A DNA stretch of 63,289 bases, the filler included, from an uncultured Gemmatimonadota bacterium (GTDB lineage Bacteria > GCA-2686955), in NCBI GenBank assembly GCA_964490075.1. It is 5 parts of 5 records of this genome, joined end to end, with 100 filler letters (N's around TTAATTAATTAA, not from the genome) between each part and the next. Parts side by side here need not be neighbours in the genome. Positions count along the whole stretch, not along the records: positions 14,724 to 29,034 come from CAZBBK010000095.1; 4 more parts are not named here. One strand, 5' to 3'. The position numbers were made by a program, and so were the translations under genes. Under the pieces are notes generated by a model. It searched no databases. It saw nothing but the letters and a program-made list of their open reading frames with translations, and was not told the origin of the DNA. Positions 6,328 to 42,524 of the stretch are shown here, in pieces (the stretch's first letter is position 1; every line of letters starts with the position of its first letter).

Positions 6328-6343
6328 TGGCATGGCGCATGCT
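6328..6343 (+). promoter_or_regulatory. putative sigma54 -24/-12 promoter of the kinase-activator operon
   Basis: TGGCATGGCGCATGCT: GG-N10-GC spacing, close to the TGGCAC-N5-TTGCW consensus; TCC-N8-GG(T/A) boxes upstream at 6238-6264. Confidence 0.55.
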
Positions 6344-6457
6344 GTTCCCCTTTTCGTCGCCGGCCGGATGGCGACCTCTCGCGGCGAGCCCTACGCTCTG
6401 ACATCTGCGCGGCACTCAGTCCGCCTCACTCTCACTCCGAAAGGAACGATCGGTCCG

Positions 6458-9400
6458 GTGGCGAGCATCCATTGGGAAGTCCTTCGAGTCCGCCTCGACG
6501 ATTTGGTGGAGCGCGGTCGCCTGAGCGATCTGGCGGCCGACGAGCTCTTGATGCACTTCATGGCGGCCGATGGCGGAGCCGCGCTCGAGCGCACCGACCT
6601 CCGTGCCGCAAACGAAGCCGTCGGCGACGAGGTGGCCGAGACGCTTCTGAACGCAGCGTACGGCGATGATCCGCGGCCCTCGACCGATCCCCCCGTGCAT
6701 CAGCCCCCCGCACCCATCTCGCCCGCACCCGGCACTCTGATCGGCGCCTGGCGCATCGGCGGGAAGCTCGGCACCGGCGCCACCGCCGAGGTCTTCGCCG
6801 TGACGCACGAGGGAAAGGACGAGCGGCGGGCCTTGAAGCTCCTGCGTCCCGGGCTCGATGCCAGCGCGCGGGAGCGCTTCTTCCGAGAGCTCGACCTGGC
6901 CCTGCATCCTCCCCATGACGCGATTCTGCGCGCCAAATCGGTCGGTCAGTGGCGCGGCCGTCCCTACGGCATTCTCGAGCTCGCCCACGGCACACTCGAC
7001 GATCGATTGCGCCGCAGCGTTCTCGAGCCGGAACAAACCTGTCGCCTGCTGATCCCGATCGCCCAGGCGCTCGCGGCCCTGCATCGCGGCGGCAACGTCC
7101 ACCGCGACGTGAAGCCGGCCAACATCTTCATCCGCGCGGACGGGAGCACGGCTCTCGGCGACCTCGGTCTGGTGGCCAGCACCGACGCGCGCACCCGGCT
7201 GACCCTCGCGGCCGGCTTCGTCGGCACGCCCGCCTACGCACCGCCGGAGCAGTTCGCGACGGGTGCCGAGCCCAGTCCTTGCTGGGACGTGCACGCCTTG
7301 GCCGCCAGCGCCTTTCACGCCATGACCGGCGACCCGCCCTGGGGACGCCCCGGGGTCGGGTCGAATCCGCTCCGCCCCTATCCGGCGAGGACCCGGGCCT
7401 TCCAGAATCTGCCCGCGAACGCCCGGGCGCTGCTCGCCAACGCGCTTGCCGTGAATCCCTCACTGCGATTGGCGACCATCGAAGCCCTGGCCCGCGATCT
7501 CGCCCGAGTCGCGGGCGGCGAGACACCGCTGGCGCGAGGTCCACGCGCGACGGACCACCTGCGGGGTTGGATCGGACTGCACCGCCGGTGGGCCGGCGCC
7601 CTCGTGCTGCTGGCCTCCGCGCTGAGCCTGGGCGCGCTGGCGCCGGATGCCCGGAGGCGCTGGAACAACCACCGGATCGAGGCGACGATCGAGCGCTCGA
7701 TCGAGACCGACCGGATCCGAGCCGCCGCCGAAATCGAGAACGCGCGGACACTCGCGGCCGAGCTCTGCTCCGCGCCGGAAGCGCCCTGGGTCTTGCCTCC
7801 TCTGCCCGCTCCGGCCGCGATGGGTCACCAGTGGGTGGCCGCCGGCGAGGTCCTCGGCGCTCTGCAAGGCGTGCCCGACTCCCTCGAGATCCCGGCCTGG
7901 GCCGACACCGACGCGGTCCTGCTGCGCCACCTGCGGGGATCCGGCGGCACCCGCCTTCGCGAAGACGCGCGCCGGCTGCGTCGTCGGATCGCGGCGCTGG
8001 AGGCGGAGATGTCGCCGCTGGCGTTGCGCACCAGGATCCGCACGCTTCTCGTCGACTCCGGGAGCGATACGGAGCTCTTGCTCGACCAGGCGCTGCGCCA
8101 GGCGCCTCTGCGCCGCGAGCGAGCCGACCTGCGCCGTCTGGCGCTGCGCCTGGCAGCCGCCGAGACCGATCCGCCGAGCGCCGCGGCGGCCGACGCCGCG
8201 CTGATGCTGGCCGAGCTCGGTCACCAGGAAACCCTGTTGCTCGACCTGGCCGAGATCCTGCTGCAGGACGCCCAGGTCGACGCCGCGGAGCGCTTGCTGG
8301 CTCGATACCGATCGGCCGCTTGGAGCGCTGCCGCCCGGCGCCGCTTCGACCAGCTGCGCAAGGCCGTACGCCTTGCGGGGCCGGAGCCCTGGGCGGCAAT
8401 CGATGCCGCGACCGAGAACGCGACGGAAGACGACCCGAGCTGGTTGAGCGCTCTGAGGCCGGTCGAGCTGCTAGAAGGGTCGTGGCACGCCATCGCCCGG
8501 CGCGACGGATCGCCCGACACCCTCTATGTCGCTCGCGACCATGGCATCCGGGAAATCGTGGCGATCGAGGGGGGCTTTCTGGAGCTCGGCGACCTCTGGA
8601 TCTTGCCCGACTCCCTGCGCAACCGTGGCTCGATCAGCCGCCTCTGGGCGCCTCCGCGGCAACAGTCATCGGAAGCTCCCGATTTCGTCGCCCGGCTGTG
8701 GCCTGGCGAAGGGCGCGATCTGGCTCACCTGTTGCTGCTGCGACGCAACGGCACCACTCTGACTGTCGTCGGTGCCATGCCGATGCACGCATCGACCACC
8801 GCGCCGGTGGCCTGGGGCGACCTCGACGGTGACGGCGGCAACGAAATCGCGATTGGTGGGGACTGGCGTGAGCCGACGATGGCGCTCTGGGCGATCGGCC
8901 CGGACGGGCGATACGCGCCGCAGCCCCGTTTGCGTCTGACCGGCGGCGAGCACCAGTTCATCGCCTTCGTCGACGTGGACGAAGACGGCAGGGACGAGCT
9001 CCTCGTCCGAGTCGACGGTTGGCGGCGCTGTGGCGCACGACTGCTCGCGCTCGACGGCCCGTCAGTCGCCGCCGGCGCCTGGCGAGAGAGGCAGAACCTC
9101 CCGATCGGCGGCGCCACCCGCGGCCGAATTCCGCGTATCCGGACCGATCAGCCGATCCCTGTTCCTACCGCCGAGTCGGTGCTCGGCTCGCTTACGAGCG
9201 ATCCGCCGGAACGCTGCAGGCTGGTCCACCACCATCCTCCGGGGCTGCAGCTCTTTCGTCGCGCCGGAGGGGAGCTGCGGCGCCACGCTACGATCGTCCC
9301 GCCCCACTGGCACCGCGGGGCCCATCCTCATCTTCCGGCCGGCGCGGGAAGCCTGCTCGGCATCGAAGGAAGAGGCGACTCCGCGGCGCTCTGGTACCAG

Positions 9401-10693
9401 GCCGGCAACGTCTCGCTCGGACGACTGGTGGTTCGGCGCGCGCTGGCCGATCGAAGCGGCGGAGAATCGCGTGCGATCGCCCTCGGGGTCTTCCAGCAGT
9501 GTTTCCTGGCCGAGCTGGACCGCGACCCCGCTCCCGAGCTGGTCCACCTTTCCAGACACTCCGTGGATCGCTCCACGGGCCCGGTTCGCATCTTGGGGCG
9601 GGACGGCGGGACGAAATCCCCACGCCACAACAATCCGTCCTCCGGCCCGCTCGCTCCAGCGTCGCCACTGTCGCCTTCCACCACCCGCTGGCAGCGCCTG
9701 TCGCATCTGGTCGGCCCGCTCCCAGCCCCGATCCGCGCGCGAGTGTTCCGTCAAGTGGCCCAGGCACCGGCGAACCGGCTCGAGCGGAATCAGGCCCGCC
9801 TCGAATGGGCACGCGCCTGCCTGGAACAGCGTCGCTACTCCGAGGCATCGCGCATCCTGGAGACCATCGAGGGTGGCGCGGAGGTCCACCTGGCTCGAGC
9901 CGAGCTGCTCGCACGACGCGGAGAGTGGAGCGCAGCCCAGGCCGAGCTCGCCGGAATCCACTCCGCCGCGAACCAGGGATCGGCGCAAGGCATGCTCGCC
10001 ACCTTGCTCGCCCAACGCCTGGCCCCGGTCATGCACTACGAAAACCTCGTCGCCATCGACTACGAGGAACGCCTGCGCTGGACCCGCGACGACGTCGACC
10101 GTCCCACGCGCAGCGCCGAGACCATGCTGAGCGCGGGTGCCGCCATCCGCGTCACGGCGGAGCTGACGATCGCCTCGATACCTCTGGGCATGCGCATCGC
10201 GATCGGTTTCCGTCCCGGCGCGGGGCTCCATGCACGACCCCAGGATCGCGGTCGAACCGTGGGGTTGGTGTTCGGGCCGTCGAGCGGTCCGGGCGAAAGG
10301 AACCTGCGGCTCGCCATCGCACCCTCGCGATCCGATCGCGCCAGCCCCGAGGACGCGCATCACGAGATGCCGGAGCGCGCGGCCCTGGGTGGCGGCGCGC
10401 GCCGGTTGCGAATCGATGTCGAGCACGTGCCGACCATGGGCATCACTCTGGCCCAGATCGCCGACTCCGCGACGGGCGAGGCGATCTCTCGCCACTACGT
10501 CGAGGAGCAATGGCAAGTGTTGCCCGAGGGTCGCACCCTGGCGGGTCTCTTCCCGGTGCGCGCCGCCGATGAGTTCGAAGGCGACGCCGACCTGATCCTA
10601 CACCGCCTGGAAGTCGCGGTCGGCGAGCTTCCCGAGCCTTTGAGATTCGGCTTGCGCAGACAGCTACCATCGTCCAAACCGGCGGAAGGTTGA
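6458..10693 (+). CDS. membrane Hanks-type Ser/Thr kinase with large C-terminal TPR/FG-GAP sensor region
   Basis: LGTGATAEV, ALKLL, HRDVKPANI, DLG, GTPAYAPPE; TM segment WAGALVLLASALSLGALA; FG-GAP-like WGDLDGDGGNEI, FVDVDEDGRDEL; start set at GTG 6458 after AAAGGAA. Confidence 0.85.
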   Translation: MASIHWEVLRVRLDDLVERGRLSDLAADELLMHFMAADGGAALERTDLRAANEAVGDEVAETLLNAAYGDDPRPSTDPPVHQPPAPISPAPGTLIGAWRIGGKLGTGATAEVFAVTHEGKDERRALKLLRPGLDASARERFFRELDLALHPPHDAILRAKSVGQWRGRPYGILELAHGTLDDRLRRSVLEPEQTCRLLIPIAQALAALHRGGNVHRDVKPANIFIRADGSTALGDLGLVASTDARTRLTLAAGFVGTPAYAPPEQFATGAEPSPCWDVHALAASAFHAMTGDPPWGRPGVGSNPLRPYPARTRAFQNLPANARALLANALAVNPSLRLATIEALARDLARVAGGETPLARGPRATDHLRGWIGLHRRWAGALVLLASALSLGALAPDARRRWNNHRIEATIERSIETDRIRAAAEIENARTLAAELCSAPEAPWVLPPLPAPAAMGHQWVAAGEVLGALQGVPDSLEIPAWADTDAVLLRHLRGSGGTRLREDARRLRRRIAALEAEMSPLALRTRIRTLLVDSGSDTELLLDQALRQAPLRRERADLRRLALRLAAAETDPPSAAAADAALMLAELGHQETLLLDLAEILLQDAQVDAAERLLARYRSAAWSAAARRRFDQLRKAVRLAGPEPWAAIDAATENATEDDPSWLSALRPVELLEGSWHAIARRDGSPDTLYVARDHGIREIVAIEGGFLELGDLWILPDSLRNRGSISRLWAPPRQQSSEAPDFVARLWPGEGRDLAHLLLLRRNGTTLTVVGAMPMHASTTAPVAWGDLDGDGGNEIAIGGDWREPTMALWAIGPDGRYAPQPRLRLTGGEHQFIAFVDVDEDGRDELLVRVDGWRRCGARLLALDGPSVAAGAWRERQNLPIGGATRGRIPRIRTDQPIPVPTAESVLGSLTSDPPERCRLVHHHPPGLQLFRRAGGELRRHATIVPPHWHRGAHPHLPAGAGSLLGIEGRGDSAALWYQAGNVSLGRLVVRRALADRSGGESRAIALGVFQQCFLAELDRDPAPELVHLSRHSVDRSTGPVRILGRDGGTKSPRHNNPSSGPLAPASPLSPSTTRWQRLSHLVGPLPAPIRARVFRQVAQAPANRLERNQARLEWARACLEQRRYSEASRILETIEGGAEVHLARAELLARRGEWSAAQAELAGIHSAANQGSAQGMLATLLAQRLAPVMHYENLVAIDYEERLRWTRDDVDRPTRSAETMLSAGAAIRVTAELTIASIPLGMRIAIGFRPGAGLHARPQDRGRTVGLVFGPSSGPGERNLRLAIAPSRSDRASPEDAHHEMPERAALGGGARRLRIDVEHVPTMGITLAQIADSATGEAISRHYVEEQWQVLPEGRTLAGLFPVRAADEFEGDADLILHRLEVAVGELPEPLRFGLRRQLPSSKPAEG

Positions 10694-10696
10694 TCC

Positions 10697-12268
10697 ATGT
10701 CCACTCAGTCCCTCGCCTCCACCATCAAGCGACGTTCCAAGGTCGAGCTGCAGTCACTCATCAACGCCCGCGATCGGCTGAATCGATCTGACACGCTCGA
10801 CGAGTTCTTGGCGTCGTTGATCGAGTTCGCCCGCAACACCGTGCGCAAGGCCGAGCAGGCCATGGTCTTTCTCGAACACGGGGACGGCCTGGTGATGCGC
10901 CCCGGCGTGGCGTTGGACGAAGACGACCGGGCGCGCTGCGGAGCCATCAGTCGCGGTGTCTTCGAGGAGGCGGTGGACAAAGGTGTCGTCTTGTCCGCCG
11001 GCCTGCACGCCGATCCCCGTTTCCATGAGCTCGACAGCGTCGTCTCCGCGCCAGACCGGAGCGTGATCGCCGCGGGCTTCGCGCATGGCCGGGCGCGGGG
11101 TGTGCTCTACCTGGAGGCACGCGGTGATCGGCTGGACGACATCGATACAGGAGCTCTGGACCGATTGACCGAAATCGTCGGCTACGCGGCGGCCGGCGTC
11201 GCGCTGCGCCTCGACCGCGAGCGGGCGCGCGTCTATCAGGAGAGCCAGCGGGCGCGCTTGCGCAATCCCGCGATTCCTCCGGATTGGGATCTGCCCTCGC
11301 CCACCATCGCCCGACTGGTGGAGTGGGCGCGAACCGTGGTCGGCCTCTTGCCGCTGGAACCGATTCTGCTCCAGGGCGAAGTCGGTACCGGCAAGAGCCT
11401 GCTCGCCCGCACCATTCACGAGCTCACCTTCGACGAGGACCGTCCCTTCATCGTGGTGGCATGCGGTCAGCTGCTCCCGGAGATCGCCGCCGGTGAGCTC
11501 TTCGGAACGGTGAGGGGCGCCTTCACCGGCGCGCTCGACCGTACCGGGCTCCTGCACGCCGCGGCGGGCGGCACTCTGGTCCTGGACGACGTGCATCAGT
11601 TGCCACGAGAGGTGCAGGGGGCTCTGCTGAGGGCCCTGGACTCCCGCATGGTGCGGCGCGTGGGTGCCCACAAGGACCAGAAGATCGTCCACCACACCAT
11701 CGCCACCAGCAGCCGCGACCTCTCGCTGCTCGAGGCGGAAGGCCGCTTCCTCCCCGACCTGCGCTCCCGGCTCACCGGAGACCAGATCACGGTGCCGGCG
11801 CTGCGGGACCGTTCCGAGGACATCGTTCCTCTGGCCCGGCGCCTGGTGGAGCTGGGCCGCCGGCGCCTGGAGCTTCCCGCGCTTCCGGAGCTCACGGGCG
11901 AGGCGTGCCGACGGCTCCAATCGCATGCCTACCGCTCCGGCAACGTTCGTGAGCTACAGAAGACCATCCACCGTGCTCTGGTCAGCGCCAATGGTGGTCC
12001 GATCCTCGCCGAGGACATCCGCTTCATGCGGTCTCCCGACGACGATCGCGATGCGATCGGCTTTCCCGGGCCACACGGCAAAGGAGCAGCGGGCGGCGCG
12101 AATCCCAGAATCGCCACTCTGGAATCGGTGATCAACACCGCCGAGCGCGCTCATTTGAAGCGGGCCATCGCGGCGGGACTGGGTGTGGAAGCGACCTGCG
12201 CTCGCCTCGGTATCTCCAAGTCGAAGTACTACTCGAAAGTGAAAGAGCACAAGCTCTCGCTGAGATGA
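10697..12268 (+). CDS. sigma54-dependent enhancer-binding protein (GAF-AAA+-Fis HTH)
   Basis: GEVGTGKS, intact GAFTGA, LVLDDV, GNVRELQ, C-terminal LGISKSKYYSKVK HTH; N-terminal GAF-like region. Confidence 0.92.
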   Translation: MSTQSLASTIKRRSKVELQSLINARDRLNRSDTLDEFLASLIEFARNTVRKAEQAMVFLEHGDGLVMRPGVALDEDDRARCGAISRGVFEEAVDKGVVLSAGLHADPRFHELDSVVSAPDRSVIAAGFAHGRARGVLYLEARGDRLDDIDTGALDRLTEIVGYAAAGVALRLDRERARVYQESQRARLRNPAIPPDWDLPSPTIARLVEWARTVVGLLPLEPILLQGEVGTGKSLLARTIHELTFDEDRPFIVVACGQLLPEIAAGELFGTVRGAFTGALDRTGLLHAAAGGTLVLDDVHQLPREVQGALLRALDSRMVRRVGAHKDQKIVHHTIATSSRDLSLLEAEGRFLPDLRSRLTGDQITVPALRDRSEDIVPLARRLVELGRRRLELPALPELTGEACRRLQSHAYRSGNVRELQKTIHRALVSANGGPILAEDIRFMRSPDDDRDAIGFPGPHGKGAAGGANPRIATLESVINTAERAHLKRAIAAGLGVEATCARLGISKSKYYSKVKEHKLSLR

Positions 12269-14158: not shown

Positions 14159-14618
14159 CGTAACCGCTTATGAACCAAAGGGATGCGTGGAATCGCAGGG
14201 GGCGGATCGATTCTCCAACTTTTTGAGAAGTGTCTGAAAACGCGCCAACCCTCTACGGATCAACGGATTACGAGGACGTCGATGGCGAAATGGCCGATTT
14301 CCAAAAGTTGGAGAATCGCCTCGAAGAGGGGTCCACCGAGTCGATTCTCCAAATTTCACAACTTGGGGCATTTCACCCAGTCGACCCGAACAGGGGGAAA
14401 GCCGTTTCATGGCAAGAAGTTGCGAGCGTGCATCATGTCGGACGCGCGTATCGATCCAGCCGAAAGTTGGAGAATCGATTTCGGTACCCCCGAAAAAGGT
14501 CGATTCTCCAACTTTTTGATTTCTGGCTACCACGAAGCTATGCAACGACTTGGCTCGATTTCGGGCGTTTTCGAGGGGTCAAAACGGGGAAAATGGCAAT
14601 CGATTCTCCAACTTTTTG
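14159..14618. repeat. array of six TCGATTCTCCAACTTTT-type repeats in mixed orientation interleaved with four IHF-like 29-bp sites
   Basis: copies at 14206(+), 14302(-), 14341(+), 14463(-), 14500(+), 14599(+); CAA-N4-TTR-type sites at 14159, 14244, 14396, 14526. Confidence 0.8.
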
Positions 14619-14623
14619 CGGAT

Positions 14624-14723
14624 NNNNNNNNNNNNNNNNNNNNNNNNNNNNNNNNNNNNNNNNNNNNTTAATTAATTAANNNNNNNNNNNNNNNNNNNNN
14701 NNNNNNNNNNNNNNNNNNNNNNN
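14624..14723. other. artificial contig linker
   Basis: N-run with TTAATTAATTAA (stops in all frames). Confidence 0.98.
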
Positions 14724-14896
14724 AGCGTTAATCTCGTAACCGGGGCCGGCGGCGCCCCACCCCCCCGCTTCGCTTGGTGGCCACCGCCCCACCCAACCCC
14801 CCCACCCCGACCAGTCGGACTTGAGCTGCGGCGCCCAGCGCCGCCAGCTCCAAGTCCGACCGCATAGGCTGCCCGCTACGCGGGCCAGCCTATGCG

Positions 14897-16285
14897 CTAC
14901 TTCCAGACTTGGCCCAGGAATCCCGCCATCTCCGGCACCCCCCCCTGAAACACCAGGTAGCCGTCGTGCGGCTCGCGCTCGGTCATTTCGCCGGCGATCG
15001 TCCGCGTCATCAGGGCCTTCACCGCCTCGGGGTCGTCGGGGTGCATTCCCAGCGCCCAGCCGAGCTTTACGTGTGCCGCCTCGGGCAGCATGTTGGCCAG
15101 CGGCACCACGCCCAGCTCGAGGATCTCGCGTCCCGTCTCGTAGACGTACATCTGCACGAATCCCCACAGCGTCTGCAGCGTCATGAAGACCGGCACTCCG
15201 GCGTCGCGGGCTCGCTCCAGGGCCGGGTAGAGCTGCCGGTTCACGTGGCCGAGACCGGTGCCGGCGATGACGATTCCGCGATAGCCGCACGCCACCAGGG
15301 CGTCGATCACGTCGGCGCGCATCCCCGGGTAGTAGTAGACAAGCGTGGCGCGCCCATCGAAGCGGGCGTGGATCGCCACGTCGCGGTCGTTCCTGCGCCG
15401 CGCGAAGCCCTTTTGGATCGGCGTGATCCGCCCCTTCTCCACCATCGCCAGCGGCAGGTCGCCAAGAGTGCGAAAAGTGCTGCGGTAGGAAGAGTGCATC
15501 TTGCGCACCCGGGTGCCGCGGTGCAGCAGGTTGTAGTGGTTCGAGGTCGGGCCGAACATGCAGACCATCACCTCGGCGATGTCGCCGTGGGCGGCCGCCC
15601 AGGTGGCGTTGATCAGGTTCTGCGCGGCGTCCGACGAGGGACGGTCGGAGGAGCGCTGGCTGCCCACCATGACGACCGGCACCGGCGGATCTTGCACCAT
15701 GAAGCTGAGCACCGCCGCGGTATGGTGCATGGTGTCGGTGCCGTGGCCGATGACGATGCCCTCGTAGCCGTCGGCGATCGCCCGCCCGATCTCCTCGGCG
15801 AGGCGCAAGTACTGCTCGGCGCCCATGTTCTCCGAGAACACCCCGAACAGCTTCTCGGTCTCCAGATTGCAGATCTCGGCCAGCTCCGGCACCGAGCCGT
15901 AGAGCTCGCCGGGGCTGAAGGCCGGGATCACCGCGCCGGTCCTGTAGTCGAGGCGCGAGGCGATGGTGCCACCGGTGCCGAAGAGCTTCACTCCCGGCTG
16001 GTGGTCGCGGACCGGGAACTCCTGCTCCGGGATCTTGTACTGGGCCTCGCGGTAGCCGATCTTCTCGAGGCCGAGGATGGTGTCGTGACGCAGCCCGATG
16101 TTGTAGCCGGTGCCGAGCTTGAGCACGATGTGCTGGGCATCGGCGGTCTCGGAGCGGGGCAGCACCAGCCCCTCGAAATCGCCTCGGGTGGTGCGTGCAG
16201 CTACCTCGCACCAGACCCCGACGCCGAAGCGGCGCATCAGGCTCAGACAGGGATCGCGGTAGCCGTGTGTTCCTCGTTCCGCCAT
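14897..16285 (-). CDS. gatD: Glu-tRNA(Gln) amidotransferase subunit D (archaeal-type, asparaginase-like)
   Basis: N-terminal GatD domain (LKLGTGYNIG), GTGGTIASRLDYRTGAV, HGTDTM, GSQRSSDRPSSDA, RKMHSSYRSTF. Confidence 0.93.
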   Translation of the reverse strand: MAERGTHGYRDPCLSLMRRFGVGVWCEVAARTTRGDFEGLVLPRSETADAQHIVLKLGTGYNIGLRHDTILGLEKIGYREAQYKIPEQEFPVRDHQPGVKLFGTGGTIASRLDYRTGAVIPAFSPGELYGSVPELAEICNLETEKLFGVFSENMGAEQYLRLAEEIGRAIADGYEGIVIGHGTDTMHHTAAVLSFMVQDPPVPVVMVGSQRSSDRPSSDAAQNLINATWAAAHGDIAEVMVCMFGPTSNHYNLLHRGTRVRKMHSSYRSTFRTLGDLPLAMVEKGRITPIQKGFARRRNDRDVAIHARFDGRATLVYYYPGMRADVIDALVACGYRGIVIAGTGLGHVNRQLYPALERARDAGVPVFMTLQTLWGFVQMYVYETGREILELGVVPLANMLPEAAHVKLGWALGMHPDDPEAVKALMTRTIAGEMTEREPHDGYLVFQGGVPEMAGFLGQVWK

Positions 16286-16288
16286 CGT

Positions 16289-18343
16289 CTAGCTCCCGAG
16301 CCCGCGCTCGATTCGCTCGCGCACCAACGCCGGATCGAGCTTGCCCAGCATCGGAGGGAGCACCTGCCCCAGCATCCAGCGCACCACCTTGTCGGGCGGT
16401 GCGTCCGCCATCTTGCGTTTCGCGAAGAAGGCGGCGGTGGCGATCCGCTCCTCCAGCTCGCGCTCGTCGTCGGGGCCGGGGCGCAGCTGCTCCAGGATCA
16501 CCTCGACCGAGCTTTCGGGCTCGGCCAGCAGCCGGTCGAAGCCGCGCTCGAAGCCCTCGGGACGAATCTCGTCTCCCTCGACGGCTCGCTGCAAGGGGAC
16601 CAGGCGCTCCGGGCCGGGCAGCGCCGCGCCGCTCTTGCGCCGCAGGAAGGGAACGCGCTTGGCGAGTGTCGCCGCCAGCAATCGCGCCGGCGCGCCTTCC
16701 GCCGGCTCGATGGCGTCGAAGAGCTCCGCCCAGGGGGCCGGGGCCAGCTGCTGAGCGGCGGTCGGATCGAGCCCCAGCGCCCGGTAGCGGTCCTCGCGGT
16801 CCCAGATCCGCTCGGCGAGCTCGGCCCGGATCTCCGCGACCCAGCCATCGGGGATCGGCAGCGGCGGCGTGTCGGTGTCGGGGTACATCCGGTCGGCCCC
16901 CGGCAGGATGCGTTCGAAGCCGGTGGTGCCGTCGGCGAAAGCCTGGCGGGTCTCCGCGGGCACGCCGACCAGTGCATCCTGCGCCCGGATGAAGATCTCG
17001 CGCGCCGCCGTGTCGGCGTCGCGGGTGGGTCCCCAGAGCGTGACCAGCGCGTCGTCCTCCCCGGCCTGGAGCGCGCTGCGCAGATGCTGCCAGTCGCCGT
17101 GCGCGATGCCGTAGCCCTCGATATCGGAGTGGATCAGGAAGGGCCGCGAGGGCAGACAGGCGATCACCCGCACTCGATCGGCCAGCTCGCCGGCGAAGGT
17201 GGCGCCGGGCTGGGTGCGCCGCGTCAAGAGCCCGCCGAAGCCCGGCAGCTTGAGGGCGCAGACCAGCTCGCCCTGGTCGAGAGCGTGGTGAATCGGCTCG
17301 AAGTCGCAGCGCCGCAGTAGCGCGCCCGCGTCGACCACCAGCGGCGAGACCTCCCAGGCGTGGCCGCCCGCCGGCAGGGCCAGAGACCCTTGCTCGACTC
17401 CGCGGCGCTCCAGCTCGGCCTTGATGCGCAGCAGATTGAGCTGCCGAAAGGCCTCGATATGCACCAGCTCGGGCAGTCCGCGGTGGCGCCCGACGCCCTT
17501 GATCTCGACCCGCCGCCCGCCGGCCACCGACACGTTGACATCTTGTCGGGCCGCTCCGGGGCCGCGCCGCACCTTGCCCGAGGCGCGCGTCAGGTGGGCG
17601 ATCAGCCGGGCCCCCGCGTGCAGCTCTTCGGGCGTCAGGAAGTCGGGCTCGGTGACCACCTCGGTGAGCGGCATGCCGAGCCGGTCGGTGCGAAAGGTGA
17701 TGCGATGGCCGAGGTCAGAGACCTCGCGACAGGAATCTTCCTCGAGTGAAAGCTGGCGAATCCGCAAGCGACGATCGATCCCCAGCGCCGGCACTCGAAA
17801 GGGGATCTCGCCGCCCAGGCCGAGCATGGCGGTGCGCTGGAAGCCGGTCGGAATCGACCCGTCGAGGTACTGCTTGCGCATCACGTGCAGCTCGGAGACC
17901 AGGTTGAGATCGAAGAGGGCGGCGATCTCCAGGGCTGTCATTACCGCCTGCCGGTCGATCTCGAAAGGCGGCGTGTCGTCGATCTCGTAGGTGCAGACGC
18001 TGCCACGCTCCAGGCGGTAGACGATCTCCTTGTGGGTCTTGAACTCCATCAACGCGCAGCCGTCGTACTCCCCCAGCTCCGACAGGGTGGGCCGCATATG
18101 ACGCAGCACCTCGGCGTCGAAACGCTCCTGGTAACGACCCGCCGGACAGCGGCAGAAGAGCTTGCTGGCGGTGTCGAGCTGCTGGTGCACCTCGAGCCCC
18201 GCCATGAAGCCGAGCTCGGCGTAGTCGGCCCTGCTCAGCTCGCCGTAGTCGGCGTCCGGAAAGTCGAGGGGCGCGTCGCTGCGGGGATTGACATCGGGCG
18301 GCGGGCGCACCGCCGGTCCGTTCTGTGCGGGGTCTGCTTGCAT
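16289..18343 (-). CDS. gatE: Glu-tRNA(Gln) amidotransferase subunit E
   Basis: GLEVHQQL..KLFC, RPTLSELGEYD, MRKQYLDGSIPTGFQRT, LEEDS, DRLGMPL, RQDVNVS, AspRS-like insert, LPGADRMYPDTD; directly upstream of gatD. Confidence 0.93.
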   Translation of the reverse strand: MQADPAQNGPAVRPPPDVNPRSDAPLDFPDADYGELSRADYAELGFMAGLEVHQQLDTASKLFCRCPAGRYQERFDAEVLRHMRPTLSELGEYDGCALMEFKTHKEIVYRLERGSVCTYEIDDTPPFEIDRQAVMTALEIAALFDLNLVSELHVMRKQYLDGSIPTGFQRTAMLGLGGEIPFRVPALGIDRRLRIRQLSLEEDSCREVSDLGHRITFRTDRLGMPLTEVVTEPDFLTPEELHAGARLIAHLTRASGKVRRGPGAARQDVNVSVAGGRRVEIKGVGRHRGLPELVHIEAFRQLNLLRIKAELERRGVEQGSLALPAGGHAWEVSPLVVDAGALLRRCDFEPIHHALDQGELVCALKLPGFGGLLTRRTQPGATFAGELADRVRVIACLPSRPFLIHSDIEGYGIAHGDWQHLRSALQAGEDDALVTLWGPTRDADTAAREIFIRAQDALVGVPAETRQAFADGTTGFERILPGADRMYPDTDTPPLPIPDGWVAEIRAELAERIWDREDRYRALGLDPTAAQQLAPAPWAELFDAIEPAEGAPARLLAATLAKRVPFLRRKSGAALPGPERLVPLQRAVEGDEIRPEGFERGFDRLLAEPESSVEVILEQLRPGPDDERELEERIATAAFFAKRKMADAPPDKVVRWMLGQVLPPMLGKLDPALVRERIERGLGS

Positions 18344-18488
18344 GGAGATCGGTTCCGGTTGAAGCGGCGCAGCATAGCAGCACCCTTCCGGATCATTGGG
18401 GGGGGAATCAAGCCGGCGACCACATTCGGATTCCCGCCTCCACGGGAAGTCGGCCAGCCTGCCTTCCCACCCCGGGTAGGCTTCCGCC

Positions 18489-19999
18489 ATGCGCGCTCCT
18501 CTTCGCAGCACGCTGGTCCGCTCCGGCGCGCTTCTGCAGTGCCTCTCCGGGCTCGGCTTCGTGGTCGCCCTGCTGCCCGCGGCCGGGCTCGATAGATGGT
18601 CGCTCGACGCCCCGATGCGTGTGGCGAGCCTTCTGTCGCCGGCGCTGTGGTTCGTGATGCTGCTGGGCGCGACGCTGCTGGCGATGGCCGCCGGCCGCCG
18701 CGGCGCGACCGCGCCCCTCGCCCCAGCGGAGCCGAGAGCTCCCGCGCTGCCGGTCGTCCTGGCCGCCCTCGCCATCGTGGTTGCCTTCGTCGCACTCTAC
18801 CGAGACGTGCTGACCGGCGGGTTCTTCTGGGACGACCACATGGGGCATATCCAGCCCGCCCGGGAAATCTGTAGCAAGCTCTCTCCCGGGTCGATCTGGA
18901 CCCGCTTCTTCCTACGCTCCGGACCGGTCGGCTTTCGTTCCGTTCCGGTCTTCGTCAGCGCCTTCGACTATGCCCTCTGGGGACTGAATCCCTTCGGCTG
19001 GCACCTGACGACGATGCTCTTTCACGTCGCCGCGGCGTGCGTGCTGATGGCATTGATGCTGCGCCTGCGCTGCTCGCGCTCACTGGCGGTCCTGTCCGGC
19101 GCGTTGTTCGCATTCTTCCCCTTCGCGGCCGAGCCGATCGCCTACGTGACGCTGCGCGAGGAGACGGTGACGATCTTTCTGTATCTGGCGACACTCTACC
19201 TCTACACCAGAAGCGTGGAGCAGCCGCTGGACTCGGCGCGCCGCGGCGCTCTCTACTCGCAGTGCTGCTCCTCGATTCGTTGTTGGTTCGTCGCGACACT
19301 CTGCGGGCCCGAATCTTGCGGATGCTGCCCTTCGCGGCGGTCTTCGCGCTCTACTTCGCGGCACGGCTCCATTTCCTGGAGCGGGTGGCGGAGCACCTGG
19401 AGACCAGCACCGGCTACGGGGGCTACGAGTACCTGCGCGCACGTTGCGATCTGACGCTCGACTCGACGGCGGGCGAGCGGGGTGAAGCGCCACCGGTGGA
19501 GCGGCTCACGCCCGGGGCCGGCGAGCGCTTCTACTTGTGAACCGCGGAGCTGGGGCGGGTGTTCGACCTGACGGCGGAGGTGGATGCAGCGTTGGCAGGG
19601 CGCCGCGAGGCCCTGGAGGGGGGGGTACGGCCGCTCTCGATGGAGGCGCGGGAGATCGACTGGCGGCGGGTCGAGGAGTGGCGCTTCGCTGGGCGCGGGC
19701 CGGGCAGGGTGGAGGCCGGTTTCGACACGCTGGCGTTGGGGCTGGAGATCGACGCCGCGGTGGAGTCGGTCTGGCGCGGCACGCTGAGCTGGTCGCCGAG
19801 CGCATTGCGCGGAGCGCCGGCGCGGCTCTGCTTCGAGGTGGAGGGTGGGGGCTGGCGGCGGCCGGCGCTGGCGGTGGGGCGCTCGTTGGACTGGCTGCTG
19901 ACTCGCGAACTGCGCTCCTTCGAACTGCACTTCGAGCCCATCGAGGGGGGAGGCGATCGGCCGGCGGAGATGCGCCTCGGAGGGATCGAGCTGAAGTGA
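18489..19999 (+). pseudogene. fragmented GT-C/PMT-like membrane glycosyltransferase
   Basis: FFWDD..FRSV..LWGLNPFGWHLTTMLFH motif; frame breaks near 19255 and membrane-like sequence resumes in another frame (LLAVLLLD..MLPFAAVFALYFAAR); further fragment 19559-19999. Confidence 0.55.
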
Positions 20000-20020
20000 T
20001 GCGGCGCGCCGCGGGGGGCG

Positions 20021-21598
20021 TCAAAGAGGCTGAAAGTCCGGATCGACCGCGAGCGCGCCCCGGATCAGCTCCGTGGCGGGCGCGTTCGGCAGGTCGGGGT
20101 CGTCGCGGGCAAGAGCGCTGTAGTGCTGCGCCACGAAATGCAAGAAGACGGCGCGCTCCTCGCGGGTCAATCCGCACACCGCGAAGAAGCGAGCCGTCTC
20201 GCCGAGCGGCCCGTCGATTCCGGTCAGGGGCGAAGGACTCCACGGGTCGGCGAGGAGCTCGCGGAGGGCCTGGCGCGTGCCCTCGTCGAGCACCGCGAGG
20301 GCCAGAGTGCGCGCCGCCAGATGGCCGAAGATCGGGTCGATTCTGGCCTCCCAGAGCTCGAGCGCGATCGCCGTGCCTTCGGCTTCCGCGCCGCTTTCCA
20401 CCAAGGCGCGGGCGAAGGGTCCCAGCGCGGGCGGATACCCGGGATTGGTGGCCAGGACCTGCGCGAGCAGCGCCGCCGCATCGGCGGGACAGGAGAGATC
20501 GAGGAGCACTCGGCTCAGGAAGATGGCGAGATCGAGATCGCTCGGATCGAGCTCGTGCGCCCGGTGGAGAACGTGGGCGGCGTCGTCGACGTCGCCGGTC
20601 TCGTGCAGCGAGATGCCGTGGAGATAGAGAGCGATCGGGTCGCGCGGGCGCGCGTTCGCCGCGATCGCGGTGTGGACCCGCGCACGGGCGAAGTCGTGCA
20701 GCTCGTGGTGGACGATCGCCAGCAGCAGGTGCAGCTCCGGCTGGTCAGGGGCACGCTCCAGGATCGCCTCCACGGAGCGCACCATCGCCTCCAGATTCAG
20801 CGCCGAGCTTGCGCGGGCGGCATCGACGAGAAGCGGCTCCAGAACGTCCTGGTCGATCTCGATGCGAGCGCCGCCCTCTCCGCTGCGACAGCACCGAAAG
20901 CCGTCGTCGTCCCAGCGCATGTTCCTGCTGTGGGAGTGATGGCGGTGGGAGCAGGCGGCCCAGGCGTCCCCGTCCCCCTGGTCGGAGCCGCGCAGCATGG
21001 GGAAGCCGGCGTGAGATCCGGGAGGCTGGGGGAAGTCCAGGTTGCGGCGCTCGGCGCGGATCGAGGCGGTCCATTCGTTGATGTTGCCGCTCATGTCCCA
21101 GACGCCGTAGCCGCTCACGCACTCCGGGTAGGAGCCGATCGGAGCGATCCGCCGGTTCGCGTTGAGGGGTTGGTTGGTGCAGCAGGCGCTCTCCCGGTAG
21201 CTGTTCCCATAGGGAAATCGCAGATTCCCGGGGCCTTTGCAGGCCTTTTCCCATTCCTCTTCGGTGCATAGCCGCTTCCCCAGCAAGCGACACCAGAGCA
21301 TCGCCTCGTACCAGTTGGATCCGGTCGCGGGCCGCAGGCCGACCTGGTAGGGGAAGGGGGTGCGATCGATGAAGTAGGCGGGGAGCTCCAGGGTCTGAAG
21401 ATGCTGGAGCTTGAACTCGTCCTCGGCGTCTCCGTCGAGCACGGTGTCGCCGTACTGAAAGAGCCCCGCGGGGATCTCCACCAGCTCGTGGAAGAGTCCG
21501 TCGTCCGCCCCGCAGCCCCCGCAGCCGGCGCCGATCCCGGCCACCAAGGCTCCGCCCGCCAAACTCCTGCGCAGCGTATGGATCCGAATGCCTTGCAC
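20021..21598 (-). CDS. FGE-sulfatase (SUMF1-like) domain protein with C-terminal TPRs
   Basis: GKRLCTEEEWEKACKG, FPYGN, SGYGVWDMSGNINEWT, GFRCCR; TPR-like helices follow; possible lipoprotein. Confidence 0.85.
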   Translation of the reverse strand: MQGIRIHTLRRSLAGGALVAGIGAGCGGCGADDGLFHELVEIPAGLFQYGDTVLDGDAEDEFKLQHLQTLELPAYFIDRTPFPYQVGLRPATGSNWYEAMLWCRLLGKRLCTEEEWEKACKGPGNLRFPYGNSYRESACCTNQPLNANRRIAPIGSYPECVSGYGVWDMSGNINEWTASIRAERRNLDFPQPPGSHAGFPMLRGSDQGDGDAWAACSHRHHSHSRNMRWDDDGFRCCRSGEGGARIEIDQDVLEPLLVDAARASSALNLEAMVRSVEAILERAPDQPELHLLLAIVHHELHDFARARVHTAIAANARPRDPIALYLHGISLHETGDVDDAAHVLHRAHELDPSDLDLAIFLSRVLLDLSCPADAAALLAQVLATNPGYPPALGPFARALVESGAEAEGTAIALELWEARIDPIFGHLAARTLALAVLDEGTRQALRELLADPWSPSPLTGIDGPLGETARFFAVCGLTREERAVFLHFVAQHYSALARDDPDLPNAPATELIRGALAVDPDFQPL

Positions 21599-21709
21599 TT
21601 CGCGCGGAGACTAGCACGGTCGGCCCTTATCATTGGGCTTCCTTGCTCCGCCAATTCGGACATAATAGATCCTGTTTATCCCTCTCGCCGCAGCCCACGG
21701 ACTGGCCTC

Positions 21710-22726
21710 ATGCCCAACCCACGACCACCGATTCCCGATTCCGTCGACGTGTTGATCGTCGGCGCCGGGCCCGCCGGTCTGGCCGCCGCGCTGCGGGTGG
21801 TCGACGCCGGGGCGACGGCGCTCTTGATCGATGCCCGAGCGAGGATCGGCGATCCGCCGCGTTGCGGGGAGCTGGCGCGCGGCAACTTCGTGGAGGTGTT
21901 CGGCTTCGAGCCCGAGCCGGGCTGGATCCGCTGGCGCATTCGCGAGCAGGGCGAGATGCCGGTGCTGAACCGCCGTGCGACCGAGAGCGGGGCGGCCCGC
22001 ATCCTGGCGCGGCGCGGGGCGCGGGTCGTGGAGGGATGCGCGCTGGTGGGGCTCGGCGAGTACGAGGGAGCCGGCCGCCGGGTCGAGCTGCGGACCCCCG
22101 AGGGCGTGGTCGAGACCCGCGCCCGGGTGGTGGTGGCGGCGGACGGCGCGGCGTCTCGGGTGGCGCGCCTGGGGGGCATCGATACGCTGCTCAGCCCGCT
22201 GGAGTGTGTCTCCTGTCTGGCCTATCGAATCGTCGACACCGAGCTGCGCAACCCGCACGGGATCCGCTTCGAGTTCCCGCCTGCGCTCAATCCGCACTAC
22301 TTCTGGGTGATCCCCTCCGGGCCCAGCGAGGCCAACGTGGGGCTCGGCGTGCCGGCTCATCGGGGGCACGCCTGCGCGCCGCTCCTGGAGCAATTGATCG
22401 AGGAGAGCGACGCACTCACGGGCGGGCGGCGGGTGCAGACCATCGTCGGCTGGTATCCGAGCACGCGGCCTCTGGAGACGCCCTACGCCGACGGACTGCT
22501 GGTGGCCGGCACGGCGGCGCGCTTCATCGATGCCGAGCTCGGCGAAGGGATCTGGCAGGCGGCGTTCAGCGGGGCGGCGGCGGGCGAAACCTGTGTCGCG
22601 GCCCTTGCCGAGGGCGATGCCTCGGCGCCGCGCCTGGCCCCGTACCGGGAGCGGGTGGAGCCGCTCTACAAACCGCTGCGTCACGGGTTCGAGAAGCGGC
22701 TGCGACGGGAGCAACGCGGTGGCTGA
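21710..22726 (+). CDS. geranylgeranyl reductase family FAD oxidoreductase
   Basis: DVLIVGAGPAG, PRCGE, VVAADG, YFWVIP, ANVGLG, GEGI. Confidence 0.8.
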   Translation: MPNPRPPIPDSVDVLIVGAGPAGLAAALRVVDAGATALLIDARARIGDPPRCGELARGNFVEVFGFEPEPGWIRWRIREQGEMPVLNRRATESGAARILARRGARVVEGCALVGLGEYEGAGRRVELRTPEGVVETRARVVVAADGAASRVARLGGIDTLLSPLECVSCLAYRIVDTELRNPHGIRFEFPPALNPHYFWVIPSGPSEANVGLGVPAHRGHACAPLLEQLIEESDALTGGRRVQTIVGWYPSTRPLETPYADGLLVAGTAARFIDAELGEGIWQAAFSGAAAGETCVAALAEGDASAPRLAPYRERVEPLYKPLRHGFEKRLRREQRGG

Positions 22727-23075
22727 GCGAGCGCGGAGCGAGGGACGAGCGCGCGGCAAGGGCCGGGCGCGGAGTCGCAAGAAGGCGCGCCGGACTTTCC
22801 TGCGCACGCTGGTGGCGGCGGGGCTGGGCGCGGTCGGGGCGCGGGCGCTGGTGGCGCGGCGCGGGGAGAGGCGGCCGATCTCGGCGCGCAAGATCGAGGT
22901 CACCGCGACCTGCATCGGCTGCACCGGCTGCATCGCGGTCTGCCCGACCGCGGCGATCGCGGCGGTGCCGGCGGGAATCAGCGTGATCGACGAGCTCTGC
23001 GTGAGCTGCGGCTACTGTCAGGCGGGGTGCGCGGTGGACGGGATTCGGGTGCTGCGGGGGCGTGATGTTGCGTAG
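22719..23075 (+). CDS. 2[4Fe-4S] ferredoxin with Tat-like leader
   Basis: CIGCTGCIAVCP and CVSCGYCQAGC; RRTFL plus hydrophobic stretch; GTG start overlaps the upstream gene. Confidence 0.8.
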   Translation: MAERARSEGRARGKGRARSRKKARRTFLRTLVAAGLGAVGARALVARRGERRPISARKIEVTATCIGCTGCIAVCPTAAIAAVPAGISVIDELCVSCGYCQAGCAVDGIRVLRGRDVA

Positions 23076-24582
23076 CTCGACCCGGGTCTGGCTGCGCCGG
23101 GCCGGTCAGCTCGTCTTCCTGGCGCTCTTCGTGGCCTTCGTCAGCAGCACGGTGCGGATTGCCGCGGGGGAGTACTTCTTCCGGGCCGATGCAGCCGCCG
23201 TGCCCTTCGCGGCGCTGGCGTCCAGAACTTGGAGCGATTCGCTCTTCTTCTGCGCCGGGCTGCTGCTGGCGACGGTTGCCTGGGGGCGGGTCTTTTGCGG
23301 CTATGTCTGTCCGATGGGGACTGTGGGCGACTTGCTCGACCGCCTCTTTCGTTTCGCGCCGCGGGCGCCCCGGGCCGGGCTCGCCAAGTACTATCTGCTG
23401 GTCCTCCTGGCGACGGTGGCGGCCGGAGGCTTGGCGTTTGCGTGGATCCTCGATCCGATCAACTGGGCGGCGCGGCTGGTCGGGGGCTTCGCTCCGCGTT
23501 TCGTGGAATTTGGCTGGATCTTCATTCTTGGCGCGCTGCTCTTGGCGCTGCACGCAGCCTTCGGGCCGAGGGCTTTCTGCCGCGTGCTCTGCCCCCTGGG
23601 CGCCGCGCTGGGATGGATCGCGCGGCTCTCTTTCTACCGCCGCGAGTTGGTGCTCGGCGACTGCGTCGACTGCGATCTGTGCGTCCAGGAGTGCCGCGCG
23701 GGGGCGATTCGACTCCATCCCGAGAGCTACGATCCGATGGAGTGCGTGCACTGCGGCCACTGCGTGGAGGTCTGTCCGACCGACGCGCTGCGCTTCCACT
23801 ACTCGGCGGATCCGCGGACGCGCGGTGCGCTGCTGGAGGGCGCGCTGCCGGCGCGGGTCGGCAAGCGGGAGATCGAAGAGGCGCCGCGCGCTCCCCGTCT
23901 GCCGCGGCGCGGCTTCCTGCTGGCCGCTGCGGCGGGGATGGTGGGGGCGCTGGCGCTGCGCCTGCCGGGCGCGGCAGGGGCGGCGAAGCGTGCTCCGCTG
24001 CGGCCCCCCGGCTCGGTTCCGGAGGACCGCTTCCTGAGCTTGTGCATCCGCTGTGGATCGTGCTCGCGGGTCTGCCCCACGGCGACGCTGCGCCCGCAGG
24101 ATCTGGACGCGGGTCTCCTGGCTTACCAGGCGCCGCTCTTCGATCCCTACGCCGGCGGCTGTCTCTTCGGATGCAACCTGTGCGGCGAGGTCTGTCCCAC
24201 CGGGGCGATCGCGGCGCTGCCCCTTGCGGCCAAGCAGCGGCTGCGGATCGGCCTGGCGCAGATCGACCCGCGCCGCTGCCTGGCGATCGCCAAGGACCAG
24301 AGCTGCCTGAGCTGTCTGGCGCTCTGCCCCTACGAGGCGATTCAGCTGGTGGAGGGCGAGAGCTCGACCGCCTGGGGCGACCGGGTCGGGCACCCCGTGG
24401 TGGTCGAGGACCGCTGCGTCGGCTGCGCCCTCTGCCAGGTCGGCTGCCCGGCCGACGAGGGGGCGGCCATCACCGTGGCGGCGCAGGGACCGCAGCAGCC
24501 GCTGCCGGACGCGGGCGATCCGCGCTCTCGCTTCGAGCCGCGCCTTGAGGATGTGTTTCGGCTGCGCCGCGGGAGCGTCTAG
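23065..24582 (+). CDS. membrane polyferredoxin (NapH/MauN-like fused to NapG/MauM-like)
   Basis: GRVFCGYVCPMG and RAFCRVLCPLG, several CxxCxxCxxxCP, internal RRGFL, LRPPGS..FLSLCIRCG. Confidence 0.85.
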   Translation: MLRSSTRVWLRRAGQLVFLALFVAFVSSTVRIAAGEYFFRADAAAVPFAALASRTWSDSLFFCAGLLLATVAWGRVFCGYVCPMGTVGDLLDRLFRFAPRAPRAGLAKYYLLVLLATVAAGGLAFAWILDPINWAARLVGGFAPRFVEFGWIFILGALLLALHAAFGPRAFCRVLCPLGAALGWIARLSFYRRELVLGDCVDCDLCVQECRAGAIRLHPESYDPMECVHCGHCVEVCPTDALRFHYSADPRTRGALLEGALPARVGKREIEEAPRAPRLPRRGFLLAAAAGMVGALALRLPGAAGAAKRAPLRPPGSVPEDRFLSLCIRCGSCSRVCPTATLRPQDLDAGLLAYQAPLFDPYAGGCLFGCNLCGEVCPTGAIAALPLAAKQRLRIGLAQIDPRRCLAIAKDQSCLSCLALCPYEAIQLVEGESSTAWGDRVGHPVVVEDRCVGCALCQVGCPADEGAAITVAAQGPQQPLPDAGDPRSRFEPRLEDVFRLRRGSV

Positions 24583-24586
24583 AGGA

Positions 24587-29034: not shown

Positions 29035-29134
29035 NNNNNNNNNNNNNNNNNNNNNNNNNNNNNNNNNNNNNNNNNNNNTTAATTAATTAANNNNNNNNNN
29101 NNNNNNNNNNNNNNNNNNNNNNNNNNNNNNNNNN
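29035..29134. other. artificial contig linker
   Basis: N-run with TTAATTAATTAA. Confidence 0.98.
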
Positions 29135-42424: not shown

Positions 42425-42524
42425 NNNNNNNNNNNNNNNNNNNNNNNNNNNNNNNNNNNNNNNNNNNNTTAATTAATTAANNNNNNNNNNNNNNNNNNNN
42501 NNNNNNNNNNNNNNNNNNNNNNNN
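42425..42524. other. artificial contig linker
   Basis: N-run with TTAATTAATTAA. Confidence 0.98.

Follow-up and report, generated by a model that had tools for sequence, protein, structure and literature searches.

The gatE-gatD operon and its products

The stretch of DNA analysed here (63,289 nucleotides (nt); in the following called the window) derives from the assembly GCA_964490075.1 of an uncultured Gemmatimonadota bacterium and carries an adjacent pair of genes, gatE and gatD, predicted to encode the two subunits of a tRNA-dependent amidotransferase of the GatDE type. The main features are collected in Table 1. The start codon of gatE is the ATG at 18343, within an open frame that extends to 18775. 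A spacer of 3 nt separates gatE from gatD, and the junction reads TAG-ACG-ATG on the coding strand (CAT-CGT-CTA at 16283-16291 on the plus strand).

Both products were scored against the curated GatE, GatD and GatB models, applying the NCBI equivalog cut-offs. GatE reached 481.7 bits with NF003107 (cut-off 456) and 396.3 bits with TIGR00134 (cut-off 319.55), and GatD 473 bits with TIGR02153 (cut-off 324) and 471 bits with NF003217 (cut-off 310). The GatB models gave window GatE 39-138.5 bits against cut-offs of 314-680, with NF004012 as the best (138.5 bits versus 338) and TIGR00133 at 103.8 bits versus 314.8. GatD also exceeded the cut-off of the type I asparaginase subfamily (TIGR00519, 357.6 bits versus 260.5). 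Among structures in the Protein Data Bank (PDB), GatE matched the archaeal chains 1zq1_C with 314 bits (residues 38-682) and 2d6f_C with 282 bits, GatB chains giving at most 88.5 bits, while GatD matched 1zq1_A with 370 bits and 2d6f_A with 357 bits, free asparaginases giving at most 142 bits.

The domain composition was examined with Pfam. GatD contains the Asparaginase, Asparaginase_C and GatD_N (PF18195, E 1.2e-10) domains. Residues 47-502 of GatE form one GatB_N match to a profile of only 277 positions, and a match stretched in this way implies an insert of roughly 180 residues, which aligns to the Pyrococcus abyssi GatE chain (1zq1_C). Pfam gave no PF02938 match at E <= 0.001 for window GatE, although this family is on record for many close homologues. 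Similarly, the alignment to 1zq1_C extends to residue 682 of 684 and is weak in the C-terminal tail, where Pfam did not report the YqeY-like family PF02637 that is on record for homologues.

The Mg2+ ligands of Methanothermobacter thermautotrophicus GatE are His15, Glu157 and Glu184 (PMC2330236), and in the phmmer alignment with 2d6f_C, with positions counted by hand, they correspond to His53, Glu201 and Glu228 of window GatE. GatD contains the motifs GTGGTIASR at residue 103, HGTDTM at 181 and SQRSSDRPSSD at 209; GTGGT (103-107), HGTDT (181-185) and VRK (260-262, within VRKMHSS) are conserved in comparison with 1zq1_A and 2d6f_A. The asparaginase-type catalytic Thr and the Thr-Asp-Lys triad of GatD are among these conserved residues, and one of them is the presumed nucleophile. 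A preliminary description of this DNA had reported an intact gatE-gatD pair 3 bp apart, with the catalytic motifs TGGT, HGTDT and SQRSSD and an AspRS-like insert in GatE. Each of these points is upheld here. The full-length alignments to archaeal structures and the model and PDB scores above, together with the trees described below, place the proteins with GatE and GatD and not with GatB or ordinary asparaginases. The pair belongs to a bacterial GatDE clade and probably constitutes a working two-subunit tRNA-dependent amidotransferase, found in an uncultured marine bacterium; the closest relatives of both subunits carry the labels Eisenbacteria and Krumholzibacteriota.

Relatives and phylogeny of the pair

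A scan of species genomes identified at least 578 loci that encode a GatE relative, and the best 80 were used for further comparison. All 80 are from metagenome-assembled genomes (MAGs) with bacterial titles, including chromosomes of 3.6 Mb and 3.8 Mb, and carry the labels Eisenbacteria, Krumholzibacteriota, Gemmatimonadota, Myxococcota, Ignavibacteria/Bacteroidota, KSB1, Phycisphaerae, Aminicenantes and Cloacimonetes; some third-party annotation labels (Rickettsiales, Hyphomicrobiales, Eubacteriales, Patescibacteria) seem doubtful. In a protein collection, all 8000 candidates scored passed E 1e-10. The best 120 of these 8000 clusters are at least 62% identical, and the named ones are GatE of Gemmatimonadota, Krumholzibacteria and Eisenbacteria. 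No cultured host was found among the best 80 loci or among the 80 loci nearest to a Melioribacter-type GatE, all of which are from MAGs.

In 72 of the 80 loci gatD follows gatE on the same strand. Of the remaining eight, seven break off at gatE or no more than about 420 nt from it, and only L072 continues for 6 kb downstream with gatD absent. Identity to the window is 62-80% for GatD and 43-76% for GatE. The pair thus appears strongly conserved across phyla, which we take as selection on the pair, and the window pair is a typical member of a very extensive bacterial GatDE branch, not a rarity. Bacterial GatDE is already annotated in databases, under names such as 'Glu-tRNA(Gln) amidotransferase subunit GatE [Gemmatimonadota bacterium]', and the gap is in the literature: a search of published texts (supplements lay outside its scope) found no study of a bacterial GatDE, in line with the earlier statement that no functional characterisation was known.

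For the phylogeny, archaeal genomes were gathered by a 16S primer scan, and 29 of these 30 gave a match above the TIGR00134 cut-off. Thermococci, Methanobacteria, Methanococci, Lokiarchaeia, Heimdallarchaeia and Korarchaeia lay outside this set. The GatE tree comprised the window, 43 bacterial and 27 archaeal sequences and 11 GatB sequences as outgroup; 6 truncated or frameshifted bacterial sequences, 3 truncated archaeal ones and 31 further bacterial loci were left out. It was calculated by an IQ-TREE quick search under LG+C20 with posterior mean site frequencies (PMSF), with supports from the SH-like approximate likelihood-ratio test (SH-aLRT) only, without bootstraps.

The 71 GatE sequences are separated from the 11 GatB sequences with a support of 100. 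When rooted with GatB, the tree divides into a bacterial clade of 44 sequences (SH-aLRT 96) and an archaeal clade of 27 (99). Window GatE groups with L001, L002, L003 and L008, labelled Eisenbacteria or Krumholzibacteriota, with a support of 97. The GatD tree, calculated without an outgroup, likewise separates 40 bacterial from 16 archaeal sequences with a support of 100, window GatD lying on the bacterial side, and archaeal GatD sequences are 40-45% identical to window GatD. In place of an asparaginase outgroup, the model and PDB scores distinguish GatD from free asparaginases. Under GatB rooting bacterial GatE is therefore sister to the sampled archaea and not nested within them, although the root is unsafe because the outgroup branch is long. 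The old cross-domain transfer proposed in the preliminary description is not borne out by two clades that lie on either side of one branch in both subunits. The split is equally compatible with an ancient transfer whose donor was a stem or unsampled archaeon and with vertical descent from a GatDE-bearing ancestor.

Some archaeal sequences showed features of their own. The GatE frames of L226-L229 (genomes G027, G031, G025 and G015, labelled Aenigmatarchaeota and Woesearchaeota) have only 480-496 residues, and their match to the hidden Markov model skips positions of about 270-398, so that the AspRS-like insert seems to be absent from these DPANN archaea. The genome G014, labelled Methanomassiliicoccales, has two full GatE matches (C11:243900-245792, L215, and C9:781304-783136). 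One of them contains an in-frame TAG and is found in the tree with Bathyarchaeia, not with other Methanomassiliicoccales, which may reflect pyrrolysine read-through or a mis-binned contig.

Identity elements of tRNA and gene linkage

The tRNA substrates were approached through G001, a complete chromosome that is the nearest complete relative of the window. It has 45 tRNA genes that cover all 20 amino-acid types, none beyond the standard types. Structures were taken from ARAGORN; minimum-free-energy folds of six tRNAs were not cloverleaf and were discarded. The tRNA-Gln(CUG) and tRNA-Asn have a U1-A72 pair and a D-loop of 7 nt, and tRNA-Gln(UUG) has U1-A72 with a D-loop of 9 nt behind a 3-bp stem. 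A D-loop of 9 nt is also present in tRNA-Glu(UUC) and tRNA-Asp, both with G1-C72, and in tRNA-Glu(CUC) (L244:277-352), which has a G1-U72 wobble pair. The latter gene lies in a cluster glnS-gltX-tRNA-Gln(CUG)-tRNA-Glu(CUC).

According to a 2008 review, the bacterial amidotransferase GatCAB reads U1-A72 together with the size of the D-loop, and archaeal GatDE needs A1-U72 in tRNA-Gln (PMC2330236). With bacterial tRNA-Gln carrying U1-A72, a bacterial GatDE must recognise the first base pair differently from the archaeal enzyme. This agrees with the adapted tRNA-Gln recognition suggested in the preliminary description, as both tRNA-Gln genes of the related chromosome have U1-A72 and not A1-U72. 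As tRNA-Asn shares the U1-A72 set, an activity on Asp-tRNA(Asn) is plausible as well.

Neighbouring genes were compared by clustering of flanking open reading frames (ORFs) and Pfam searches on representatives. In six Gemmatimonadota loci (L016, L020, L022, L025, L026 and L033) glnS directly follows gatD, and in all of these but L016 gltX lies divergently upstream of gatE. In this order, gltX (divergent)-gatE-gatD-glnS, an enzyme of the indirect pathway stands between two class Ic synthetase genes. The glnS beside gatD is the sole glnS in the three such genomes searched. In L069 glnS adjoins gatE, and a gene similar to glutamine synthetase (GS) adjoins gatE-gatD in three loci with different phylum labels (Table 1). 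These linkages are few independent events, all of which appear to point to glutamine and Glx-tRNA.

A scan of 60 loci identified no tRNA-Gln beside gatDE; tRNA-Ser(GCU) is located upstream of gatE in 5 Gemmatimonadota loci, some of them among those with glnS beside the pair, and Glu and Val tRNAs were each matched once. A separate observation concerns a Gemmatimonadales GlnRS (G005:C28:78232-80463), which continues in frame into a GatB/YqeY-like C-terminal domain. The GlnRS of Deinococcus has the same C-terminal arrangement.

Proposed function and alternatives

The reading we favour, and consider probable from the sequence comparisons, is that the pair forms an accessory amidotransferase for Glu-tRNA(Gln) that has become adapted to bacterial tRNA and possibly also acts on Asp-tRNA(Asn). 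With marginally less assurance, we infer that its most likely substrate is Glu-tRNA(Gln) formed by an incompletely discriminating GluRS, and the physiological role is deduced in the same way. Judging from the archaeal enzyme and the conserved residues, GatE would bind the mis-acylated tRNA and phosphorylate the side-chain carboxylate with ATP and Mg2+. Ammonia released by GatD from glutamine or asparagine would pass to GatE and amidate the intermediate. The enzyme would act in parallel with GlnRS, providing an accessory or clean-up pathway to Gln-tRNA(Gln), and would read U1-A72 and a short D-loop in place of the archaeal A1-U72.

Several observations weigh against this proposal. The A1-U72 pair of the characterised archaeal enzyme's substrate is absent from both tRNA-Gln genes of G001. 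Whole genomes were searched behind 30 of the 80 loci, 5 chosen for complete or long contigs and 25 of the other 75 for long contigs and spread of labels; apart from records titled as chromosomes these are MAGs of unestimated completeness, and the counts ignore kinship. GlnRS was over its cut-off in 29 of these 30 GatDE-bearing genomes, missing only in the Phycisphaerales chromosome G002, and AsnRS in 28. GatB was over its cut-off in 14 of 30, an AsnB-type synthetase in 24 of 30 and GatA in all 5 genomes searched for it. GluRS was present in all 30, single-copy in most and with two full copies in only 4. Since GlnRS and AsnRS are nearly always present, GatDE does not fill a missing route.

In addition, 81 genomes from the phylum of G001 were sampled, for which relatedness and completeness were ignored in the counts. 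GatE was detected in 15 (3 of them query seeds), GatB in 72 and GlnRS in 47, and a distribution this patchy indicates that GatDE is dispensable in the phylum. GlnRS was present in 13 of 15 GatE-positive and 34 of 66 GatE-negative genomes (Fisher p = 0.019), and in 10 of 12 GatE-positive genomes when the seeds were removed (p = 0.058). In this sample the pair accompanies GlnRS and does not replace it. The sample includes the genome G074, flagged as unpublished (without GatE and GlnRS, with GatB), and without it the number of GatE-negative genomes is 65.

A related and more tentative view, which we regard as possible, is that the pair belongs to an old sister lineage to archaeal GatDE, retained mostly alongside GlnRS, which would depart from the textbook role by reading U1-A72 and acting on both Asp-tRNA(Asn) and Glu-tRNA(Gln). 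It might then be the sole asparagine route in some lineages and elsewhere clear the mis-charging by an incompletely discriminating GluRS, an extension that is equally tentative.

A reading in which the enzyme acts chiefly, or additionally, on Asp-tRNA(Asn), having adjusted to U1-A72 and a short D-loop and serving tRNA-dependent asparagine synthesis in the manner of GatCAB, appears unlikely, although part of the evidence speaks for it. In G001 tRNA-Asn and tRNA-Gln share U1-A72 and the 7-nt D-loop, the latter in tRNA-Gln(CUG), as opposed to the G1 and 9-nt D-loop of the Glu and Asp tRNAs. Three of the 30 genomes (G050, G054 and G056) have no detected GatB, AsnB (E <= 1e-30) or AsnA, yet contain AsnRS. 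In the phylum sample, 4 of 15 GatE-positive versus 5 of 66 GatE-negative genomes yielded no GatB (Fisher p = 0.056); without the seeds the figure for GatE-positive genomes is 4 of 12 (p = 0.028). These absences are, however, drawn from MAGs of unestimated completeness. The window's nearest relatives G001, G003 and G004 contain GatA, GatB and AsnRS, and two of them AsnB over its cut-off. Where linkage is present, it is to gltX, glnS and a GS-like gene and not to aspS or asnS. Furthermore, window GatE retains the AspRS-like insert, which in modelling would clash with non-discriminating AspRS (PMC2330236).

A role outside routine translation, for example with a different acidic aminoacyl-tRNA, with a tRNA-like substrate or only under nitrogen stress, is still less probable. 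It would explain the persistence of an accessory pair despite complete direct routes, its apparent redundancy beside GlnRS, AsnRS and often GatCAB, its strong conservation in spite of the patchy occurrence within the phylum, and the GS-like neighbour in three loci. On the other hand, the 45 tRNAs of G001 are all of standard types, no conserved tRNA or other partner was found beside the operon (60 loci scanned for tRNA; 80 loci and the window clustered), and the catalytic residues for the canonical reaction are all kept. Glu-tRNA(Gln) amidation remains the preferred reading. Of the overall interpretation given in the preliminary description, an intact bacterial GatDE free of contamination and with altered tRNA reading stands, whereas its origin by transfer is not shown.

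Residence of the pair in a bacterial genome

The strongest argument for bacterial residence is the relatives of gatE and gatD themselves. The nearest GatE and GatD are bacterial, with 66-80% identity; archaeal GatE sequences score at most 338 bits versus at least 535 bits for bacterial GatE, and the relatives are located on a 3.6-Mb chromosome and a 1.7-Mb contig. The composition was compared as well. The GC content of gatDE is 0.695 versus 0.708 in the rest of the contig, the GC content at third codon positions 0.89-0.91 versus 0.86-0.89 in the neighbours, and the tetranucleotide correlation r = 0.96 with the rest of the contig and 0.94-0.96 with the other four contigs of the window. The pair is thus as GC-rich as its neighbours, which is what had been noted from the sequence at first sight.

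The stretch was found in four DNA sequencing runs (X1-X4) of one marine-metagenome study; no RNA run was listed for it. In X1 one Logan contig, 14,112 nt long, spans 15731-29034 with zero differences, although X1 is not independent support because it may be the source sample of the window. In X2, X3 and X4 short contigs extend across the gatD/gatE junction. Only two near-full-length relatives of the polyferredoxin encoded on the same contig were found in species genomes (59% identity), both in Gemmatimonadota-labelled MAGs. Elsewhere in the bin, contigs code for FabH, for a sigma-54 activator and for a GspE-type ATPase that exceeds its cut-off.

Thus, archaeal contamination of the bin, or a chimera joining archaeal and bacterial genes, is rejected as next to impossible: the window combines short contigs of one bin through linkers and the GatDE contig is short with gatD at its end, but the bacterial nearest relatives, the relatives on megabase bacterial contigs and complete chromosomes, the native composition, the bacterial relatives of the neighbouring polyferredoxin and the Logan contig running from gatD to the far contig end rule it out, as the preliminary description had supposed. 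A recent import from an archaeon on a genomic island is rejected with the same firmness, since flanking genes common to none of the 80 related loci are outweighed by the missing compositional step, the lack of any tRNA gene found in the window, the position of the pair deep within a bacterial clade that largely follows phylum labels, and the long branch, about 1.2 changes per column, that separates this clade from the archaeal sequences.

Operon ends and neighbouring genes

Directly 3' of gatD, the minus strand of 14790-14900 folds into tandem hairpins with -69.7 kcal/mol (z = -5.5), and 0 of 200 shuffled sequences were as stable. The hairpins have no U-tract, and a consensus terminator scan listed none around the operon; they are likely the operon 3' end. 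Scans around the operon gave no sigma-70-like promoter and no Rfam family at gathering score. ORF clustering found no neighbour family common to the window contig and the 80 related loci.

The window consists of five contigs joined by N44-TTAATTAATTAA-N44 linkers, as seen from reading the sequence and listing the N runs, and adjacency across the linker points is artificial. The GatDE contig comprises 14724-29034 (14.3 kb). As gatD lies 173 nt from its end, genes beyond the operon are outside view. The earlier remark that one contig carries gatDE together with a FlgD-Ig protein holds for this contig, whereas the window itself is not one contig.

Table 1. Features of the gatE-gatD region, of the window and of related loci
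Feature	Position	Strand	Remarks
gatE, kinase/transamidase subunit with AspRS-like insert and C-terminal tail (predicted)	16289-18343	-	684 aa; NF003107, TIGR00134
gatD, asparaginase-type amidohydrolase subunit supplying ammonia (predicted)	14897-16285	-	462 aa; TIGR02153
Two tandem GC-rich hairpins directly 3' of the gatD stop	14814-14896	-	RNA fold
Intergenic region between gatE and divergent ORF	18344-18488		presumed promoter region; ORF layout
Divergent ORF upstream of gatE	18489-19454	+	matches no family
ORF	19559-19999		matches no family
Geranylgeranyl-reductase-family flavoprotein, then NapH/NapG-like membrane polyferredoxin	21401-24582	+	
FlgD_ig protein	24587-25948	-	PF13860, E 1.4e-7; on GatDE contig
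FGE-sulfatase/TPR protein			on GatDE contig
Beta-helix protein			on GatDE contig; runs off contig end
Artificial contig joiners, N44-TTAATTAATTAA-N44	14624-14723, 29035-29134, 42425-42524, 55615-55714		N runs
Glutamine-synthetase-like gene adjoining gatE-gatD (related loci)	L009:9346-10917, L046:1-1389, L066:2-802		three different phylum labels

The flavoprotein upstream of the polyferredoxin reached 122 bits with TIGR02032, under the cut-off of 158.8, and is weakly similar to archaeal digeranylgeranylglycerophospholipid reductases. At 19862 one base of the window is left out by the Logan contigs of runs X1, X2 and X3, a possible frameshift error in the assembly.

On contig 1 of the window, a motif of 18-20 nt (ATCGATTCTCCAACTTTTTG) is present six times at 14206-14618, in either orientation and at intervals of 100-160 nt, in a stretch that reaches the contig end. 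The region 289-12268 of the same contig encodes a DEXH helicase-like ORF, a sigma-54 activator, a BrxD-like ATPase (92.5 bits, under the cut-off of 350) and a Ser/Thr-kinase protein of 1459 residues that weakly matches MAD6. This region is a possible defence or stress island.

Comparison with known systems

The archaeal GatDE enzymes of P. abyssi (1ZQ1) and M. thermautotrophicus (2D6F) have the same two subunits and domain order as the window pair. Shared are the GatD N-terminal domain and asparaginase core, the GatE cradle, AspRS-like insert and possibly C-terminal tail, the Mg2+ ligands, the Thr/Thr-Asp/Lys residues and the adjacency of the genes. The window pair differs in its bacterial host, in a separate clade for both subunits and in short N-terminal extensions of GatE and GatD, the archaeal alignments starting at about residue 36-38. 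Its likely substrate tRNA would have U1-A72, in contrast to the A1-U72 of archaeal GatDE. Bacterial GatDE coexists with GlnRS, unlike archaeal GatDE; GlnRS is encoded by no archaeal species as stated in one review (PMC9499178). Taken strictly, the name archaeal GatDE does not apply to the window pair, which lies on a bacterial contig and in a bacterial clade and has a relative, G001, with U1-A72 tRNA-Gln.

The 2008 review calls GatDE an archaeal signature protein (PMC2330236). In the review passages drawn on here, GatDE is treated as archaea-only, and on this view rest one argument about its co-evolution with archaeal tRNA-Gln and another about the failure of archaea to acquire GlnRS. Both arguments are undercut by a large bacterial clade with GlnRS and U1-A72 tRNAs. 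Should the sister position be correct, it would also be relevant to the suggestion that GatDE is older than the divergence of bacteria and archaea.

Among the bacterial GatDE annotated in MAGs of Eisenbacteria, Krumholzibacteriota and Gemmatimonadota, the window pair is a direct member with the same gatE-gatD order, GatE being 62-76% and GatD up to 80% identical. The window operon ends in two hairpins, whereas some Gemmatimonadota operons continue into glnS, and its flanks are unique to the window contig in comparison with the 80 related loci. A single window adds one member and co-occurrence figures and no new kind of system. New here are the co-occurrence with GlnRS, the patchiness within a phylum, the gltX/glnS wiring in some lineages and the bacterial-type tRNA-Gln of a relative.

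With the type I L-asparaginase AnsA, GatD shares the asparaginase N- and C-domains, and it differs in its higher GatD equivalog score (473 bits), the presence of GatD_N and the coupling to gatE. In bacterial GatCAB, GatB is paralogous to GatE and has the same kinase/transamidase core without the insert, and ammonia is supplied by the amidase GatA with GatC instead of the asparaginase-type GatD of the window. The identity set of GatCAB is that of the relative's tRNA-Gln and tRNA-Asn, and bacterial GatDE is natural material for the question of how amidotransferases choose their tRNAs.

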